NCBI GenBank assembly: GCA_048463395.1
Contig: DBFWPL010000025.1
Span: 9,545-73,544, forward strand
Length of the DNA: 64,000 nt
Source of the DNA: Alphaproteobacteria bacterium
GTDB lineage: Bacteria > Pseudomonadota > Alphaproteobacteria > RF32 > CAG-239
Direction of reading: 5' to 3'
Position 1 is the first letter of the stretch, and every line of letters starts with the position of its first letter. Both the position numbers and the translations under genes were made by a program. Positions 3 through 31,243 of this stretch are shown here, piece by piece. The notes below the pieces were generated by a model, which did no database searches, was not told the origin of the DNA, and worked only from the letters and a program-made list of their open reading frames with translations.

Positions 3-3000
3 TTGGAGCTTTTAGCTAAAAAACTTTTTGAAAACGGTTTATGGCCAGATGAAAATCCTGAAGGAACCGATAAACTAAAAAGCAAATCTCCTTATAAAAT
101 TAGAACAGATGCTCTAAATGAACGATTAGCAAGCCCTTATTATATCGGACGAGCCATTTTGCATATCGCCAAACACCGTGGAGCAGGTTTTGTTTCAGCT
201 AGTGAAGAAACAGAAGAGGAAATTTTAGAAGAGGGCGAAAAGTCAAAGGCTAAAAAGTCTTCTTATGATATGATGCTGCATCACCTAAAAGAAACAAATT
301 CCAAAACTATCGGCGAATTTTTTTATAATAAAATAATCTCTGGCAAAGGAAATGATAAAACTGTTCGTCAGAAAAAATATGCGATTGAAAAAAATATTGT
401 AGATTACGCCATACCTCGTTACCTTGTTAAAGATGAGTTTAATCAAATTTGGGATAAACAGTCCGAATTTTATCCGCAAATGAAAAAAGAAAATTTGAAG
501 AAAGAAATTTACGATATTTTATTTTATGAACGTCCGGCAGCACCGTATGCCACAGGTAAATGCATTTATTTCAGGGAAGAAGACCGCCTGCTAAAAGCTC
601 ACCCGTTATCGGAAATGCGTCGTATTTATGAAGAAGTCAACAATATCCGCATTTTAAATGGTATGGGCAAAAGAAAATTAACCTTGGAAGAAAGAAATGC
701 TATTGTTAATGAACTTTTGCTAAAAGGCCAAAATGCGGGTAAACAGGCAATCAAAAAATTGCTCAACTTGTCGGCACAATACAAAATTTCTTTGGTTGAT
801 GACAGAGTAATTAAAGCCTATTTATATTCTCGTCCCGAATTTGCAAATAATGAACATCTGCAAAATATGAACGAAGATGAGCTTTCATCTTTTATTGAGT
901 TTTTGGCAGAACCAAAAATGACGAAGGATAAAAATGCCCGTTTATACAATGAAGATGCGTTAATCGAGTATCTTAAGCCAATTCTGAAAATTGATGACGA
1001 AAAAGAAATCGGCAACCTTCTAACCAAACTGCCCAAAGGGCGGGGAATGTTAGGTATAAGTGCCACAAAAATTATTCTCGGAAAATTAAAAGAAGATGTA
1101 GTAACACATCGTGAAATTACCGACAAATTAGCTGAAACAGATAAACGATTTATGGCAGAGGAAGAAATCGCCCGCCAAAATCAGGGAAAATGTTTTCAAC
1201 TTCCTTATTATGGGGAAATTTTACAAACAGATACGGCTCCGCTTCCGCCGTTAATGATAAATAACAACAAAAGCCTTAACCCTGATGAGATAAAATGGGG
1301 TAAAATCGCCAATCCTGCCGTGCATATGATTCTCAATCAAATTCGTTTAGTTGTTAATGAAATTATCAAAATTTATGGTAAGCCTTATGACATCAATATT
1401 GAGCTTGGTCGTGATGTCGGTATGTCAACAAAGAAGAAAAAAGAATTTGAAAACCGACAAAAACAAAATGAAAAACTTAATGAAGAGGCTAAAAACCATT
1501 TAAAAGAACATAAAATTGCCATAAACAGTAAAAATATTTTAAAATACAAATTAGCCAAAGAGCAAGGGTGGAAAGATGCCTACAACCCGACACAAAATAT
1601 TTCTTCTGTATTTACGGGTATGGAAATTGAACATATTATTCCCCAGGCTAAAGGCGGAACAGATACATATAACAACCTCTGTTTAGTTAATCGCAATGAC
1701 AACTTAAACAAAGGCGACCGATATGCTTATGAATATTTTGAAGAAACAAAAACCCCTGAAGAAATCAGAGAAATTTTAAAAAATGCCCGTTCTCGTACCC
1801 CAGATAAATCTTGGCGGTTTGAAGCTGATGCTCGTGAAAAATATGAAGAAAGTGGTGATAAAGAAGAAAGCACCCGTTATCTGACGGATACCCGCTATGT
1901 TGCAAAAATGGCACAGCGATATTTGCGGGCTGTTGTCGATTGCTCTGATTGTGACGAAGTTATGCAAAATCGCATTTTGGCGGTCAAAGGCGGACAAACG
2001 GCCAAATTACGTCAACGTTGGAATTTACTTGGTTTAGAATATGATTTAATGGGACTTGATATTCCAAGATACTTTAAACTAAGTGAAGAACGCGTAAACC
2101 CATATACCGGTGAAGTATTTGATAAGGTTAAAAATAAAGAATGGCAACCCAAACCACGTATTGATCATAGACATCATGCTATGGATGCTATAACGGTTGC
2201 TTGTGCAAACCGTGGATTGATTCAAAAAATGGCAGAAGAAAATGATATTAACAAAATTCATTATCCGTTGCCTTTAACTTCTGTCGAATCTGTCGGAGAG
2301 TTTCGTCGCAAAGTTATCGACGTTCTAAAAAACGTCAAAGTTTCGCACAAGCCTAATCATAGTAAAGCAGGACAATTCCACAAAGAAACAGGTAGAACCG
2401 TTTTGTGTCAAAACCCTGATGACCCGAATTCTTTAATCACTGTTTATTCTCGCAAAATTTTACAAGTGGTAAAATCGGCTAAAGATTTAACGAAATTGCT
2501 TATTCCCAAAACAATTAAAAATGAATGGCACGAGGATATTGCAGAACATAAAGCTAAACAGGCTAAGTTAGTACAAGATTTTGAACTTTATATGAATACA
2601 GCGGAACAAATTTTAATTGCCGAAAATGAGCAAGGCATGGCCGAGGGTAAAAAGGAAATCAAAATTACCGAGGGAAGAATTTTGTTAAAAGCATTCCGCA
2701 TTATCCAAGATAAAGGCTTATGGAAAGGCGATAAATTTAGATGTTATTCCAACAGCTCATCTATGATAAATATTCCTAAACATGGTGTCGCTTATGAGGC
2801 TCAAAACAACCACTGTGTAGATTTTTATAATAAAGATGGCAAAGTTGGCTGGGAAGTCATTAAGCGATTTGATGCAAACCAAGCAGACTTTGAACCCCAA
2901 TGGAAAAAAGAGGGCGGAAAAATTATTTGGTCTGTTCAACAAGGTGATATTTTAGAACTTGATACACCTGATGAATGGAAACAATATACTGACAAAGAAA

Positions 3001-3239
3001 GATGTTTGGCAAAAGTAAAGAAGTTTAGCGATGGTGCTGTTACTATTGATTTTGTTACCGATGCCCGTATGACTTCGCCCAAAGATAAAAATTTGCAATA
3101 TATGTTTGTTGATAGTCTTGTAAATAGAGGATTAAGTTATTTTACAAATAACAAAGCACGCAAAGTTGAATTGACGCCATTCGGTAAAATCAAAAAGAAA
3201 CATAAGGTTCTATGGAATGGCACGAAGACAACGGCTTGA
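3..3239 (+). CDS. cas9: CRISPR-associated endonuclease Cas9, type II-C-like; N-terminus lies off-window (1078 aa fragment)
   Basis: The ORF translation carries an arginine-rich/bridge-helix-like motif (LHIAKHRG). It has an HNH motif (IEHIIPQAKGG...NNLCLV...NLNKGDRYAYEYF) that closely resembles the Neisseria meningitidis Cas9 motif NKGNQTPYEYF. A RuvC-III motif (DHRHHAMDAITVACA) is present, and the basic C-terminal tail resembles that of NmeCas9. Aligning against NmeCas9 suggests roughly 95 or more N-terminal residues are missing upstream of position 1. Confidence 0.93.
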   Translation: MELLAKKLFENGLWPDENPEGTDKLKSKSPYKIRTDALNERLASPYYIGRAILHIAKHRGAGFVSASEETEEEILEEGEKSKAKKSSYDMMLHHLKETNSKTIGEFFYNKIISGKGNDKTVRQKKYAIEKNIVDYAIPRYLVKDEFNQIWDKQSEFYPQMKKENLKKEIYDILFYERPAAPYATGKCIYFREEDRLLKAHPLSEMRRIYEEVNNIRILNGMGKRKLTLEERNAIVNELLLKGQNAGKQAIKKLLNLSAQYKISLVDDRVIKAYLYSRPEFANNEHLQNMNEDELSSFIEFLAEPKMTKDKNARLYNEDALIEYLKPILKIDDEKEIGNLLTKLPKGRGMLGISATKIILGKLKEDVVTHREITDKLAETDKRFMAEEEIARQNQGKCFQLPYYGEILQTDTAPLPPLMINNNKSLNPDEIKWGKIANPAVHMILNQIRLVVNEIIKIYGKPYDINIELGRDVGMSTKKKKEFENRQKQNEKLNEEAKNHLKEHKIAINSKNILKYKLAKEQGWKDAYNPTQNISSVFTGMEIEHIIPQAKGGTDTYNNLCLVNRNDNLNKGDRYAYEYFEETKTPEEIREILKNARSRTPDKSWRFEADAREKYEESGDKEESTRYLTDTRYVAKMAQRYLRAVVDCSDCDEVMQNRILAVKGGQTAKLRQRWNLLGLEYDLMGLDIPRYFKLSEERVNPYTGEVFDKVKNKEWQPKPRIDHRHHAMDAITVACANRGLIQKMAEENDINKIHYPLPLTSVESVGEFRRKVIDVLKNVKVSHKPNHSKAGQFHKETGRTVLCQNPDDPNSLITVYSRKILQVVKSAKDLTKLLIPKTIKNEWHEDIAEHKAKQAKLVQDFELYMNTAEQILIAENEQGMAEGKKEIKITEGRILLKAFRIIQDKGLWKGDKFRCYSNSSSMINIPKHGVAYEAQNNHCVDFYNKDGKVGWEVIKRFDANQADFEPQWKKEGGKIIWSVQQGDILELDTPDEWKQYTDKERCLAKVKKFSDGAVTIDFVTDARMTSPKDKNLQYMFVDSLVNRGLSYFTNNKARKVELTPFGKIKKKHKVLWNGTKTTA

Positions 3240-3258
3240 AACCCTGACAGGATGGTCA

Positions 3259-3579
3259 ATGATGTGGATAATCTGTATGTTTGACATTCCAGTCAGAACC
3301 AGAACGGAAATGCGTAAAGCGACACGTTTTCGTAATTTGCTCTTAGATGAAGGTTTTATGATGAAGCAGTTTTCTGTTTATATAAAACCGGTGAAGAGTT
3401 TATCTGTAGGGCAAACGACAACCAAGAAGTTGTCAAAATTTATTCCGGATAATTCTTCGGTTTCTTTTCTTTATGTTACGGATAAACAATACCTAATGAC
3501 GGAGAATTATTTAGGGCAAAATTATGAAGAAAATGAGGAAGAGAATCGTGAAAAAAACGGTCAACTGCTGTTATTTTAA
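3259..3579 (+). CDS. cas2: CRISPR-associated endoribonuclease Cas2 (type II family)
   Basis: The tool ORF is 3217..3579. The translation (MMWIICMFDIPVRTRTEMRKATRFRNLLLDEGFMMKQFSVYIKPV...FLYVTDKQYLMTENYLG) aligns with type II Cas2 sequences of the form MRMILMFDMPTDT...[21 protein letters not shown]. I prefer the in-frame ATG at 3259 because it is preceded by AGGATGG. The upstream ATG at 3217 would overlap the end of cas9 by 23 nt. Confidence 0.85.
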   Translation: MMWIICMFDIPVRTRTEMRKATRFRNLLLDEGFMMKQFSVYIKPVKSLSVGQTTTKKLSKFIPDNSSVSFLYVTDKQYLMTENYLGQNYEENEEENREKNGQLLLF

Positions 3580-3606
3580 GAGATAATCTTGCTTGTTTTT
3601 TTATAG

Positions 3607-3647
3607 AAAAAGCCTTGAATTTGTTTTTATTTCAAGGCTTTATGCTA
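3607..3647. terminator. Bidirectional intrinsic terminator between cas2 and the CRISPR array
   Basis: An 11-bp perfect stem (AAAGCCTTGAA at 3609-3619 pairing with TTCAAGGCTTT at 3631-3641) encloses an 11-nt loop. It is flanked by an A-run on the left and T residues on the right. On the minus strand the stem is followed by UUUUUCU, so it is the stronger terminator for transcripts leaving the array leftwards. Confidence 0.55.
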
Positions 3648-3653
3648 ATACAT

Positions 3654-4547
3654 AGCATATCAGAGATTAATTAGACGGTCAATTATAACGAAGTCTTTTC
3701 GTATATCCATTGGAAGATTAGCATATCAGAGATTAATTAGACGGTCAATTATAACTCTTCACATGACAGATTAAAAACCAAAGCAAGCATATCAGAGATT
3801 AATTAGACGGTCAATTATAACCCATGTTGCGTACTAGGAAAAGACCTCTGCAGCATATCAGAGATTAATTAGACGGTCAATTATAACGATTCTTGTTTTT
3901 TAAGCTGAGATAATATAAGCATATCAGAGATTAATTAGACGGTCAATTATAACATACCTGATTATTATGTTGAAAAATACAAAAGCATATCAGAGATTAA
4001 TTAGACGGTCAATTATAACGCGGCTTTTCATCACCAGTTTATATCGATGAGCATATCAGAGATTAATTAGACGGTCAATTATAACGTTATGAGGGCATAA
4101 AAAAACATTCAGAATAGCATATCAGAGATTAATTAGACGGTCAATTATAACTATTAGTGGTATACGTCGTCGTTTAACTCCAGCATATCAGAGATTAATT
4201 AGACGGTCAATTATAACTGTTTTAACGAAGAACCATCAGTCATCATAAGCATATCAGAGATTAATTAGACGGTCAATTATAACACTTAAAGCGGATATTA
4301 CTTCTCAACTTCAAGCATATCAGAGATTAATTAGACGGTCAATTATAACATGAAGAGCCGTGTATTATTTTAGGTATTAAGCATATCAGAGATTAATTAG
4401 ACGGTCAATTATAACGTAAATGTAAATATTGGCCTTACGGTGACGAGCATATCAGAGATTAATTAGACGGTCAATTATAACCGGGAGAACAGGGTTCTTT
4501 GCCTGATGCTCAGCTTATCAGAGATTAATTAAGAAATTATATAATTT
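3654..4547. CRISPR. CRISPR array with 13 complete 36-bp repeats, 13 spacers of 30 bp, and one truncated or degenerate terminal repeat
   Basis: The repeat, written on the + strand, is AGCATATCAGAGATTAATTAGACGGTCAATTATAAC. It recurs with exact 66-bp periodicity starting at 3654, 3720, 3786 and so on up to 4446. The spacers are all unique 30-mers. A degenerate copy, AGCTTATCAGAGATTAATTAAG, sits at 4512-4533. The reverse complement of the repeat begins GTTATAATTGACC, which matches the usual GTT start of type II repeats in transcript orientation. That argues the crRNAs are read from the minus strand, right to left and co-directional with cas1. Confidence 0.95.
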
Positions 4548-5463
4548 CCGGATATTTTAAAGCAACCTTTTTTGTTTCGAAACTATCAACTAAGCTGCTT
4601 ATGAAGTTATAAATTCCATCATTTAATGAAACGCAGCCTTTAGTTGTTTTTACTGGATATGTTATAATTTTTGTCAGATTTCTTTTAAGTTCCGGTGTTA
4701 ATTCTATATGGTCAATATTTACCATTTTGTTTAATTCTTCAAAGACAATTTTATCTGCGATTGCTCGAAAAGGTTCAATCATATCATCGACAAGGGGTAA
4801 TGAGTTTGATTTTGTGCAATGTTTTAGTCCCAAATATGGTAATAATCCGTTTCCGGAAATTGCTCTGGCGACCATAGCTCGTAAGACAATATATGAGTAG
4901 TTTAGCATAATATTTATATCATCATTAAGGCGGTCTCTTATAAATTTTTTGCCAAAGAGTGATTTGAAGTATATGGCTGCGGCAACACCTTCATTATTTT
5001 GAGCGTCATTACTCAATGTTTCTTTTGCCAGATTTTTTAATCTTTCAATGTTTGTATTTTCAGGGAAAAAATGTTCTAATATTTTAGCTTGGTTTAAAAT
5101 TTTGTTTTGAACGATGCTTTTCCATAGATTTTTTTGTAGTGGTTTGGAGCAGTTTATTTGCTGCTTTATTCTGGGAGCCATGAGCCAATGTCCTGTATAG
5201 GGAAGAGCTATTGTTTCAGGAAGATAATTTTTGCCGCAAAAGATAATGTTTCCGCCTTGTCGGCTGACAGCATTGATGATGTTTTTGGAAACGGTGATGT
5301 TGTTGGCGGATAACACCAAGGCCAGGATGTTATCAAGAGGGATTTCTTGTTTGAGTTTGTTGTCTTTATTTTCGATGTTTAAAAAGCCTCTGTGTAAAGA
5401 TAGAGAAAACCCATCATTCATGACTTCAATTATTTGTTTATCCATATGAAAACTTTCTTTCAA
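4537..5463 (-). CDS. cas1: CRISPR-associated endonuclease Cas1 (type II)
   Basis: The 308-aa ORF carries the conserved Cas1 catalytic region (LGLKH ... DDMIEPFRAIAD) and a length typical of Cas1. Its stop codon lies 4 nt from the degenerate terminal repeat. Confidence 0.9.
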   Translation of the reverse strand: MKESFHMDKQIIEVMNDGFSLSLHRGFLNIENKDNKLKQEIPLDNILALVLSANNITVSKNIINAVSRQGGNIIFCGKNYLPETIALPYTGHWLMAPRIKQQINCSKPLQKNLWKSIVQNKILNQAKILEHFFPENTNIERLKNLAKETLSNDAQNNEGVAAAIYFKSLFGKKFIRDRLNDDINIMLNYSYIVLRAMVARAISGNGLLPYLGLKHCTKSNSLPLVDDMIEPFRAIADKIVFEELNKMVNIDHIELTPELKRNLTKIITYPVKTTKGCVSLNDGIYNFISSLVDSFETKKVALKYPEII

Positions 5464-5694
5464 GATTTTTAATTATTATATCTTATCAGGCAGATAAGTC
5501 AACAAGGGGAACCTTTCGGAAATCTTAGTTTTGGGGAAGGAAGAGTTTTTTATACAGGGAGAAAATGGCTGGGATTCTAGAAAAAGTAATGTTATTCTTT
5601 GGAGAGAGAGGAAATTGTTTTTTATTGAGTAATAAAAAAACAGATATTTTTCAATACCTGTTTTTTTATTGTTTTTGTTATTTAAAACGTCGGC

Positions 5695-6483
5695 TTATTT
5701 AATTTCTTCTTCCGGCATGATAATTTCATTTTCAACAATGGCCGGAGTGGTTCCAACCAGGTTAGCCGGCTGAGTAAGGACGGTTGTTGAAGCAGGAGTC
5801 GTGGTCGTTACGACAACCGGAGCAGCAGGTACTGTTGCTGTTGTTTCAATAACGTTGGCCGGTTGGGCAATAACTCTTGTGCTTACGATTTGAGCTCCTG
5901 TAACCGGTTGTTTTTCATAGCTGACAGCCTGATGTGTTTCCGGTTTGTAAACTGTTGTATAAGTTGTTTTCTTATAGGTAACTTCTACCGGTTCTTTAAC
6001 TTCTTTTACAGTTGACTGACAGCCGGAAGCTGTAGCATTGGCTGTTGTATAGTTTGCACAAGGAACAACATTAACAACTCTTTGTGCCGGAGCGGCTGTT
6101 TTGACGATAACCGGTTCAATAACAGGCTGAGGAGCTGCTTTTTCCTGAGAAGCATTACAAGGAGCAGAATCTAAAATTGAGCCATTGTAGTTGCTTCTGC
6201 AAGGAGAAGAAGCAAGGAGAGTTGTGTTTGTTTCAGGTTTTGGAGCCTGATAAGCGTTTTGAACGATAACCGGCCGGCGGGCTTTTACGACTCTGACCTG
6301 TTGACCGTTTTGAGTGTAATAAGTCTGTGAGGTGTATCTTCTGGATAAGCAGTTACCGTTTTCATCATAGTAATTGCATCCTTGGTCATCATAACCTCTG
6401 TAAACTTCTTGTGTGTGGGTAGTGCAAGCCGCTAATAAAGCGATTGCTGATAAAATGAGTGTTTTTTTCATCAAAGTTCTCAC
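5695..6483 (-). CDS. Putative lipoprotein, Thr/Val/Pro-rich, function unknown
   Basis: The protein has a signal peptide with an LLAAC lipobox. Its body is low-complexity and rich in T, V and P, with scattered cysteines. Confidence 0.6.
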   Translation of the reverse strand: MRTLMKKTLILSAIALLAACTTHTQEVYRGYDDQGCNYYDENGNCLSRRYTSQTYYTQNGQQVRVVKARRPVIVQNAYQAPKPETNTTLLASSPCRSNYNGSILDSAPCNASQEKAAPQPVIEPVIVKTAAPAQRVVNVVPCANYTTANATASGCQSTVKEVKEPVEVTYKKTTYTTVYKPETHQAVSYEKQPVTGAQIVSTRVIAQPANVIETTATVPAAPVVVTTTTPASTTVLTQPANLVGTTPAIVENEIIMPEEEIK

Positions 6484-6577: not shown

Positions 6578-7852
6578 TTACTTCTTTTGAGTCTTTTTCT
6601 TTAATTTTCTAATATTTTCTGCGAGTTTTTGAGCTTTTTGAATGATTTCTTTTTCACCCTTTACGGATTTGTTTCTCATTAATATTTGTCCATCACAGAT
6701 AACGTCGGTGATGCAAGAGCTGTCTGCGGCATAAACAATATTGGAAATAAGATTGTAATCCGGTGTTAGGAAAATATTGTCTAAATCGACCAATATGCAG
6801 TCGGCAAGTGCTTGTTTTTCAATGATTCCCGCATTTAATCCGAAAGCCTGAGCTCCGTTCCTGGTGGCCATGCGAAAAATATCTTGAGCTTTGCCAGCGG
6901 AAGCGTTCATCGATTCGATTTTTGCTGCCAGGGAGCAAAGTTTCATTTCCTCCAGCATACTGAGATTGTTATTGGAGGCTGAACCATCCGTTCCTAAAGT
7001 CAGGTTGCAGCCGGATTTAAGAAGTTTTTCAAATTTAAACAATCCGGAGCAGAGTTTCATGTTGGAGGCCGGATTGGTGGCAAGATTGACTTGGTGTTTG
7101 CTTAAGATTTCAATATCTTTTTCGCTTAAGTGGATTGCATGGGCTAAAATGGTTTTGGGACCGAGCAAATTCCATTCATCAAGTTTTTCAATCGGGGATT
7201 TTCCGTATTTGGCGAGACAATCCTCGACTTCTTTGGCGGTTTCGGAGGCGTGGATATGAATGAATAAGTTATTTTTATGAGCAAATTCTGCCGTCCATTT
7301 AAATAAGTTTTCCGAAACGGTATAAACCGCGTGGCAGGAAATGCTTTTGATAATTCTTTCCGGACAAGGGTTAGGTTGGTTATAAAATTCCAAAGCCATT
7401 TCCTTTTTTTGGTGGGCGGTTTCTTCGTCAAACAAGTCAAACTGCACAAGAGAAACTGCGGCTCGAACACCCATTTCACAAACGGCTTGGATGGAGCGTT
7501 CCATAAACCAATACATGTCTGAGAAAAATACGGTTCCGGTTTTTATCATCTCCAATATTGCCAGACGGGTTGCGTCATATATGTCGTCAGGGGAGAGAAG
7601 GGCTTCAATCGGCCAGATGTCTTCATTGAGCCAATCAAAGAGTGGTTTGTCGTCCCCTAAACCTTTCAAAACAGTCATGGCGGCATGAGTATGCGTATTG
7701 TAAAATGCCGGAAGGATGGCTTTGCGGCTGCCGTCAATGATGGTATCTGCCGGAGTATTTATATTGGGTTTTATTTGGGCAAATGTGTTTCCTTCAATGA
7801 GGATATCTGTAGTCTCATTGTTTAGCAGAATGTTTTTTATCAATATTGTCAT
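6578..7852 (-). CDS. mtaD: Amidohydrolase-family deaminase, 5-methylthioadenosine/S-adenosylhomocysteine deaminase (MtaD)-like
   Basis: The N-terminal metal-binding motif is FYNTHTHAAMTVLKG and an HxH signature is present. Length is 424 aa and the chlorohydrolase/MtaD pattern includes HIHASET and GTDG. Confidence 0.7.
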   Translation of the reverse strand: MTILIKNILLNNETTDILIEGNTFAQIKPNINTPADTIIDGSRKAILPAFYNTHTHAAMTVLKGLGDDKPLFDWLNEDIWPIEALLSPDDIYDATRLAILEMIKTGTVFFSDMYWFMERSIQAVCEMGVRAAVSLVQFDLFDEETAHQKKEMALEFYNQPNPCPERIIKSISCHAVYTVSENLFKWTAEFAHKNNLFIHIHASETAKEVEDCLAKYGKSPIEKLDEWNLLGPKTILAHAIHLSEKDIEILSKHQVNLATNPASNMKLCSGLFKFEKLLKSGCNLTLGTDGSASNNNLSMLEEMKLCSLAAKIESMNASAGKAQDIFRMATRNGAQAFGLNAGIIEKQALADCILVDLDNIFLTPDYNLISNIVYAADSSCITDVICDGQILMRNKSVKGEKEIIQKAQKLAENIRKLKKKTQKK

Positions 7853-31167: not shown

Positions 31168-31243
31168 GCGAACGTAGCTCAGTTGGTAGAGCCCCGGTTT
31201 GTGGTACCGGTTGTCGTGGGTTCGAGCCCCATCGTTCGCCCCA
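31168..31243 (+). tRNA. tRNA-His (anticodon GTG)
   Basis: A cloverleaf can be drawn with an extra 5' G at -1, the acceptor stem GCGAACG/CGTTCGC, a D arm GCTC-AGTTGGTA-GAGC, an anticodon stem CCGGT/ACCGG with loop TTGTGGT, and a T arm GTGGG-TTCGAGC-CCCAT. A 3' CCA is encoded. It is followed by a hairpin terminator. Confidence 0.9.

Follow-up and report, generated by a model that had tools for sequence, protein, structure and literature searches.

The left end of a 64-kb window of DNA from an Alphaproteobacteria bacterium carries a CRISPR-Cas (short palindromic repeats, clustered and regularly interspaced, with their associated genes) locus in which cas2 directly follows cas9, the array comes next and cas1 lies beyond the array on the opposite strand. 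We consider it very probable that the whole locus is a complete type II-C cassette in a layout typical of its clade, in which the trans-activating CRISPR RNA (tracrRNA) gene, the array and cas1 are read on the minus strand and cas9 and cas2 on the plus strand, with a leader between cas2 and the array (Table 1). Judged from related sequences, this gene order is a lineage trait of a large, mostly gut-associated group rather than a rearrangement specific to one genome. The II-C system looks functional and is apparently active. Features left of the window are numbered on the source contig (L001, a 145-kb metagenome scaffold), whose position 6785 corresponds to window position 1, with zero mismatches over the 13.6 kb compared.

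The initial annotation of this stretch had described a type II-C locus with cas2 directly after cas9, with cas1 beyond the array and convergent with cas2 (an open frame on the minus strand, 4537–5463), and with the array downstream of cas1 on cas1's own strand. All of this agrees with our analysis, in which the genes match Cas9, Cas2 and type II Cas1 models and csn2 and cas4 are absent. The further claim that the order is an unusual rearrangement did not survive comparison with related loci.

A Cas9 search returned hundreds of close homologues, mostly from metagenome-assembled genomes (MAGs) of gut Alphaproteobacteria. A pattern scan of one-genome-per-species contigs yielded 78 loci with Cas9 identities of 33–94%, in which cas1 and cas2 were located by tblastn and arrays by k-mer periodicity. 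The order seen in the window (layout A) recurs in 37 of these loci. Layout B, found in 12 loci from Desulfovibrionaceae/Mailhella, D. cuneatus and Planctomycetota and in one more with cas2 undetected, differs in having cas1 directly next to cas2, convergent with it, and the array on the far side of cas1. In layout C (7 loci), cas1 is instead on the plus strand, upstream of the tracrRNA and cas9, and the array follows cas2. No cas1 is present within 4–7 kb in 4 loci, and the contig ends too early in the other 17. cas2 directly follows cas9 in 70/70 related loci with cas2 detected, and cas1 lies between the two genes in none of them (0/71 when every locus with a readable region after cas9 is counted). 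The sister layouts, represented by Desulfovibrionaceae/Mailhella, Planctomycetota and other gut alphaproteobacterial MAGs, share with the window the overlapping or abutting cas9-cas2 pair, the stand-alone cas1, the repeat orientation and the architecture of the promoter within the repeat.

That this genome alone acquired the layout, by recent rearrangement or through mis-assembly, is hardly credible. The order does depart from the cas9-cas1-cas2 operon that originally defined II-C (PMC3737331), and the source is a metagenome scaffold. However, 37 independent species-level assemblies show the identical order and none of the 78 loci shows the canonical one; relatives also share the terminal repeat that runs into the cas1 stop codon, described below. 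A single artefact common to all assemblies is implausible, as projects and assemblers differ, and the recurrence of the order in independent assemblies excludes an assembly error that misplaced cas1. Our literature search returned no description of a cas9-cas2/array/inverted-cas1 order; an earlier description may exist, and the layout A order is apparently undescribed so far.

Four of the related loci (L031, L044, L056 and L076) combine cas9-cas2 with the absence of cas1 within 4–7 kb on the array side; an array was detected in three of the four. Such cassettes may lack cas1 altogether, or their cas1 may lie at another site. The longest array we encountered, in a distant relative with a 39% identical Cas9 (L067; OZ254962.1, 12154–19717), contains at least 115 repeats and runs off the fetched stretch, with no cas1 seen before the end of that stretch.

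Table 1 Features of the II-C cassette. Positions refer to the window unless marked L001.
Feature	Position	Strand	Description
tracrRNA	L001 6492-6395	-	~100 nt upstream of cas9; ~290-390 nt left of window position 1
cas9	3-3239	+	C-terminal 1078 of 1141 codons; TIGR01865 408 bits, HNH and RuvC_III domains
cas2	3217-3579	+	TIGR01573 60 bits, PF09827; 23-nt overlap with the end of cas9
Leader	3580-3653		74 nt, from cas2 stop codon to first repeat; presumed spacer-integration end
Leader hairpin	3609-3641		11-bp stem, 11-nt loop; stem CCTTGAAAT..ATTTCAAGG conserved in relatives
CRISPR array	3654-4511	-	13 perfect 36-nt repeats and 13 spacers of 30 nt; strand assigned by tracrRNA anti-repeat
Degenerate 14th ('extra') repeat	4512-4547	-	Identical to the consensus at 19/20 first nt and 4/16 last nt
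cas1	4537-5445	-	302 aa; open frame reaches a TTG at 5463; TIGR03639 (type II Cas1) 245 bits
cas1 promoter-like site	5475-5502	-	TTGACT-16-TATAAT, 11/12 matches; ~30 nt upstream of the ATG at 5445

Assignment to type II is supported by a Cas9 with RuvC-like and HNH nuclease domains and by a tracrRNA with anti-repeat, nexus hairpin and terminator, which lies outside the window. Within type II, the adaptation genes are cas1 and cas2 alone, without the csn2 of II-A or the cas4 of II-B, and the array is predicted to run antisense to cas9, each repeat containing a promoter, as in II-C. The cas9-cas1-cas2 operon order is found neither here nor in any related locus examined; it was usual in the first account of II-C (Chylinski 2013) and is no formal II-C criterion in later classifications. 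An open reading frame (ORF) listing and profile searches found no additional ORFs between the tracrRNA and cas1.

The complete cas9 gene (L001:6598–10023) encodes 1141 residues, with the N-terminus just left of the window edge. The protein matches PF13395 (HNH_4), PF01844 (HNH) and PF18541 (RuvC_III), and its catalytic residues D8, H607, N630 and the H787/D791 motif are invariant among 20 orthologues. The closest solved structures are Cas9 chains of 1082–1092 residues, for example 6jdq and 6kc8 (E = 4.5e-45) and 8ja0, which we take to be Neisseria meningitidis entries; overall similarity is low, the match being limited to ~250 residues around HNH/RuvC plus the N-terminus. The most likely start of cas1 is the ATG at 5445, which has a purine-rich ribosome-binding site, is used by the public contig for a 302-residue form and is where alignments to relatives begin. 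The Cas1 residues E158, H215 and D226/D227/E230 are conserved among 55 Cas1 sequences. The ratio of nonsynonymous to synonymous substitution rates (dN/dS) among close relatives is 0.06–0.12 for cas1, and that for cas2 is 0.015–0.035. With its catalytic residues intact and the gene under purifying selection, Cas1 appears to be functional. Exact-protein look-ups of Cas1 and Cas2 returned the source contig only.

The promoter-like site upstream of cas1 is the top-scoring one between 3000 and 6000. Together with the ATG at 5445 and its ribosome-binding site, this predicted promoter marks cas1 as a probable transcription unit of its own. Between the preceding lipoprotein-like gene and the cas1 promoter, the sequence contains an A7CAG..CTGT7 inverted repeat (5634–5667) that might insulate cas1 against upstream transcription; it is weak, with 3 G-C pairs and a 14-nt loop, and was left unflagged by a terminator scan.

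The strand on which the array is transcribed can be read from the tracrRNA. The only strong anti-repeat outside the array lies upstream of cas9 (L001 6466–6489). It comprises 24 nt perfectly complementary to repeat positions 7–30, followed by a 5-nt bulge and a 6-bp lower stem, in which UAUAAU pairs with repeat positions 1–6 and the first pair is G:U. After the lower stem come AA, a GGC...GCC nexus hairpin and then a GGGGGCAA/UUGCCCCC terminator hairpin. This RNA is kept at the same place in ~45 related loci, and in a 26-sequence alignment 8/14 predicted pairs, in nexus and terminator, change on both sides. In its G:U start, AA junction and GGC nexus, the tracrRNA described here conforms to what Faure et al. 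2018 (PMC6546382) reported as regular for II-C. Its polarity places the crRNA (CRISPR RNA) on the minus strand, the same strand as cas1 and antisense to cas9-cas2. Within the window, the sole strong anti-repeat outside the array is the degenerate repeat at 4512–4547; as the source of the tracrRNA anti-repeat, it was ruled out by the better, conserved candidate upstream of cas9 with its nexus and terminator.

The 13 identical repeats span 3654–4481 with a period of 66 and read GTTATAATTGACCGTCTAATTAATCTCTGATATGCT in the crRNA sense. On the minus strand, 13/13 repeats contain TTGACC-17-TGaTATGCT, a predicted sigma-70-type promoter with an extended -10 element at the repeat 3' end. Among relatives the last 3–4 nt of the repeat vary and TGATAnnnT is kept; repeats of distant Desulfovibrionaceae, read directly, contain TTGCCT-17-TGcTAAACT. 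The arrays of N. meningitidis and Campylobacter jejuni are antisense to the cas operon (PMC3737331), and the arrangement in the window is, at the level of predicted promoters, the processing-independent crRNA type known from these two species. The array would thus be read on the minus strand, towards cas2, from the promoter embedded in each repeat, and cas9 and cas2 would form one overlapping plus-strand unit. Cas1 and Cas2 would be made from separate mRNAs and assemble in trans.

The alternative, in which the array continues cas9-cas2 on the plus strand in the manner of II-A, with the leader as promoter and cas1 antisense to the array, is highly improbable. The degenerate repeat sits at the cas2-distal end, which is the leader-distal end by II-A logic, and the plus-strand repeat ends in TATAAC. 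Yet the conserved tracrRNA with its nexus and terminator fits a minus-strand crRNA alone, and a plus-strand transcript would leave the first six repeat nucleotides beside the spacer unpaired. Full promoters are on the minus strand of every repeat, and the leader contains a terminator-like hairpin and no promoter-like site.

At its cas1-proximal end, the minus-strand array terminates in the degenerate 14th repeat. The initial annotation had placed the cas1 stop codon 4 nt from the array; the array does adjoin cas1, but the decayed half of this repeat had been missed, and the repeat overlaps the stop codon (4537–4539) and shares 11 nt with cas1. The 5' 16 nt of the repeat in the crRNA sense are replaced by the cas1 3' end, and the same overlap of stop codon and decayed terminal repeat is seen in many layout A relatives. 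In II-C systems, spacers are added at the repeat that is transcribed last; the repeat transcribed first is the oldest or 'extra' one, and its mutations cluster within about 15 nt of its beginning (Feussner et al. 2025; PMC12080349). The degenerate repeat described here, mutated in its first 16 nt in the crRNA sense, follows the same pattern. By analogy, we infer that it is the oldest, first-transcribed extra repeat, which makes the cas1-proximal end the old end and the 74-nt region beside cas2 the leader. New spacers would then enter at the cas2-proximal repeat beside the leader, as in other II-C systems.

The position of cas1 upstream of the array raises the question of read-through, which the initial annotation had put forward as a source of precursor crRNA (pre-crRNA). 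Such a source is not needed, since all 13 intact repeats have a predicted minus-strand promoter of their own, as does cas1. We regard as unlikely the stronger proposal that read-through is the main source of pre-crRNA and that the split serves to link the expression of Cas1 with the making of crRNA. In its favor, cas1 and the array point the same way, there is no room for a terminator between its stop codon and the array, and the first transcribed repeat is without a -35 element. However, every other repeat has its own promoter, and in layouts B and C the repeat promoters are kept along with near-identical cas9-cas2 and repeats, in loci with no cas1 upstream of the array. Any read-through from cas1 would probably add merely a crippled 'extraneous' crRNA and some transcript of the oldest spacers.

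A related proposal is that a free-standing, co-directional cas1 just upstream of a half-overwritten extra repeat is a regulatory device in this clade rather than a neutral layout; this, too, we think has little chance of being correct. Transcripts of cas1 would continue into what is left of the repeat, with 15–20 nt still able to pair with the tracrRNA upper stem. As the remnant is without the Cas9-binding lower stem, no functional extraneous crRNA would result, and the tracrRNA together with RNase III would set the 3' end of the cas1 mRNA, so that the amount of Cas1 would follow that of the tracrRNA. A second role, as the II-C integration signal, would fall to the conserved 74-nt leader and its hairpin at constant spacing.

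The leader hairpin had been proposed in the initial annotation to separate two transcription units, and a conserved structure is indeed found there. On either strand its folding is better than that of shuffled sequence (z = -2.2 for plus, -2.9 for minus), and of the two U-tracts that follow it, UUUUUCU on the minus strand is superior to UUUAUGC on the plus strand. The distance from cas2 stop codon to first repeat is 72–75 nt in most layout A and C relatives, in which the CCTTGAAAT..ATTTCAAGG hairpin lies ~12–13 nt from the first repeat. The stem covaries at its base (CG/AU/GC/UA), and 5/6 predicted pairs change on both sides. The hairpin is kept in layout C, without cas1 beyond the array, and therefore belongs to the cas2/array junction and not to cas1. 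On the simplest reading, it is likely to act as a terminator for both converging units. The fixed spacing between hairpin and repeat hints at an additional leader function.

The cassette appears to be modular. Homology to every relative is confined to the stretch between the tracrRNA terminator and the cas1 start, and neither a shared flanking gene nor an insertion or rearrangement scar was found against the relatives at the nucleotide or protein level. The absence of shared flanks indicates that the cassette is horizontally mobile. Within it, cas9 is 95–97% identical in nucleotide sequence to two relatives (L002 and L003) over the first ~1.85 kb, with a patch of 72–76% at 1856–2110. From ~3160 onwards, in cas2, in the leader and, when compared separately, in cas1, identity to the same loci is ~70–76%; L002, L003 and L039 are mutually ~87–91% identical through cas2 and leader. 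The patch and the drop look like recombination breakpoints inside the cassette. Synonymous sites of cas2 and cas1 are saturated in comparison with these relatives.

Identity patterns also differ between cas1 and the rest of the cassette. A layout A locus (L015) and a layout C locus (L020) share 96% identity in Cas9 and 100% in Cas2 as against 73% in Cas1, and their nucleotide identity from tracrRNA through array is 94%. The upstream-type Cas1 proteins of L005, L020, L022 and L058 form their own group, 82–99% identical to one another and at most 79% to all others, with the upstream-type Cas1 of L059 as an outlier (49–51%). These mismatches between cas1 and cas9-cas2 indicate that cas1 has been exchanged independently. 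By the sequence comparisons, cas1 thus behaves as a satellite, found at three positions in the clade, of a core made of tracrRNA, cas9, cas2, leader and array.

Evidence of spacer acquisition comes from relatives. Among 89 spacers of close relatives, one perfectly matches a gut Microviridae genome: spacer 10/11 of L006 (Candidatus Scatocola faecigallinarum; Cas9 ~92–93% identical) matches 'Dulem virus 95' (L081; PP511438.1, 2283–2312) at 30/30 positions. Spacer 10 also matches dog and chicken microviruses (27/27), so that the matches come from lemur, dog and chicken gut. The 3' flank of this protospacer in the crRNA sense is CAAGAGAA; a protospacer-adjacent motif cannot be derived from this one case. 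The perfect match indicates that systems of this clade acquire phage DNA. For the window, two spacer cores had no match among viral contigs, and the spacers matched neither the window itself nor the fetched loci.

Several points weigh against our reading of the locus as an active cassette transcribed and extended as described above. The 13 spacers of the window gave only chance-level matches to a phage collection, with no protospacer found. No spacers are shared among the 78 species-level loci, so that array polarity could not be read from them, and metagenome contigs gave no match to the oldest spacer. Promoters, terminator and transcript ends have all been predicted, from consensus or from structure. 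Finally, the degenerate repeat has lost its -35 element, and the oldest spacer may therefore depend partly on cas1 read-through.

The lack of protospacer matches would also suit a decaying adaptation module, in which cas1 has become uncoupled from cas2 and spacer acquisition has ceased. We consider this very unlikely, because both adaptation proteins are intact, their catalytic residues being conserved and dN/dS lying at 0.02–0.12, and because arrays of relatives range from 3 to 115 repeats and have no spacers in common. The perfect match of a relative's spacer to gut Microviridae also argues against decay.

Compared with known systems, the active cassette we favor most resembles the II-C loci of N. 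meningitidis and N. lactamica (Nme1Cas9 locus) and of C. jejuni. It shares with the Nme1Cas9 locus the minimal gene set cas9, cas1 and cas2, the 36-nt repeats and 30-nt spacers, a tracrRNA with an AA-GGC nexus and an array antisense to cas9 with one promoter per repeat and an extended -10 element at the repeat 3' end, the promoters here being predicted. In contrast to the cas9-cas1-cas2 operon of Neisseria, the window has cas9-cas2, array and inverted cas1, cas1 has its own predicted promoter, and the repeat contains a recognizable -35 element (TTGACC) in addition to the extended -10.

As in C. jejuni (PMC12080349), promoters are embedded in the repeats, here by prediction, an extra first repeat is mutated, in C. 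jejuni by tendency in its first 15 nt, and insulation of the array from upstream transcription is an issue. Acquisition in C. jejuni takes place at the last transcribed repeat (PMC12080349), and the same end would, by analogy, be used here. Whereas a Rho-independent terminator lies upstream of the extra repeat in C. jejuni, here it is cas1 that lies upstream, and the end of its reading frame has replaced the half of the extra repeat that binds Cas9.

The cassette is flanked by a GIY-YIG-like gene, an unclassified lipoprotein-like ORF and an amidohydrolase gene. The small GIY-YIG-like ORF abuts the tracrRNA terminator and adjoins a region left of the window (L001:4505–6392) with genes for a tyrosine integrase, an HTH_17 protein and a protein with a Cap4 nuclease domain, and with a 3' tRNA-like fragment (GGTTCAAATCCTGCCCCCGCAACCA); ARAGORN found no full tRNA at the fragment. 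This region appears to be an integrative element bordering the cassette. On the other side, a 262-residue ORF (5695–6483, minus strand) encodes a signal of the lipoprotein type (…LLAAC) together with a body rich in Thr, Pro and Val; searches of Pfam, NCBIfam and PADLOC gave no match to it, and no related cassette has a counterpart beside it. A single tRNA gene (31168–31240, plus strand) is the sole match above Rfam gathering thresholds in the window.

Taken individually, the locus matters little: it is one more functional-looking II-C system, with an odd gene order that was inherited. It is a variant in organization that otherwise follows established II-C logic, and its interest lies mainly at the level of the clade, in the relocating cas1 and the conserved leader. 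In this large, mostly gut-associated Cas9 lineage, none of the related loci examined has the cas9-cas1-cas2 operon, and automated locus typing as well as leader and orientation predictors that assume this order will mis-read such loci. With cas1 behaving as a separately transcribed and exchanged module while cas2 is welded to cas9, the lineage offers a natural experiment on the need for co-expression and co-evolution of Cas1 and Cas2. To our knowledge, the determinants of II-C leaders are poorly defined, and the conserved leader of 74 nt, whose covarying hairpin keeps a constant distance to the first repeat, is a candidate II-C leader signal.

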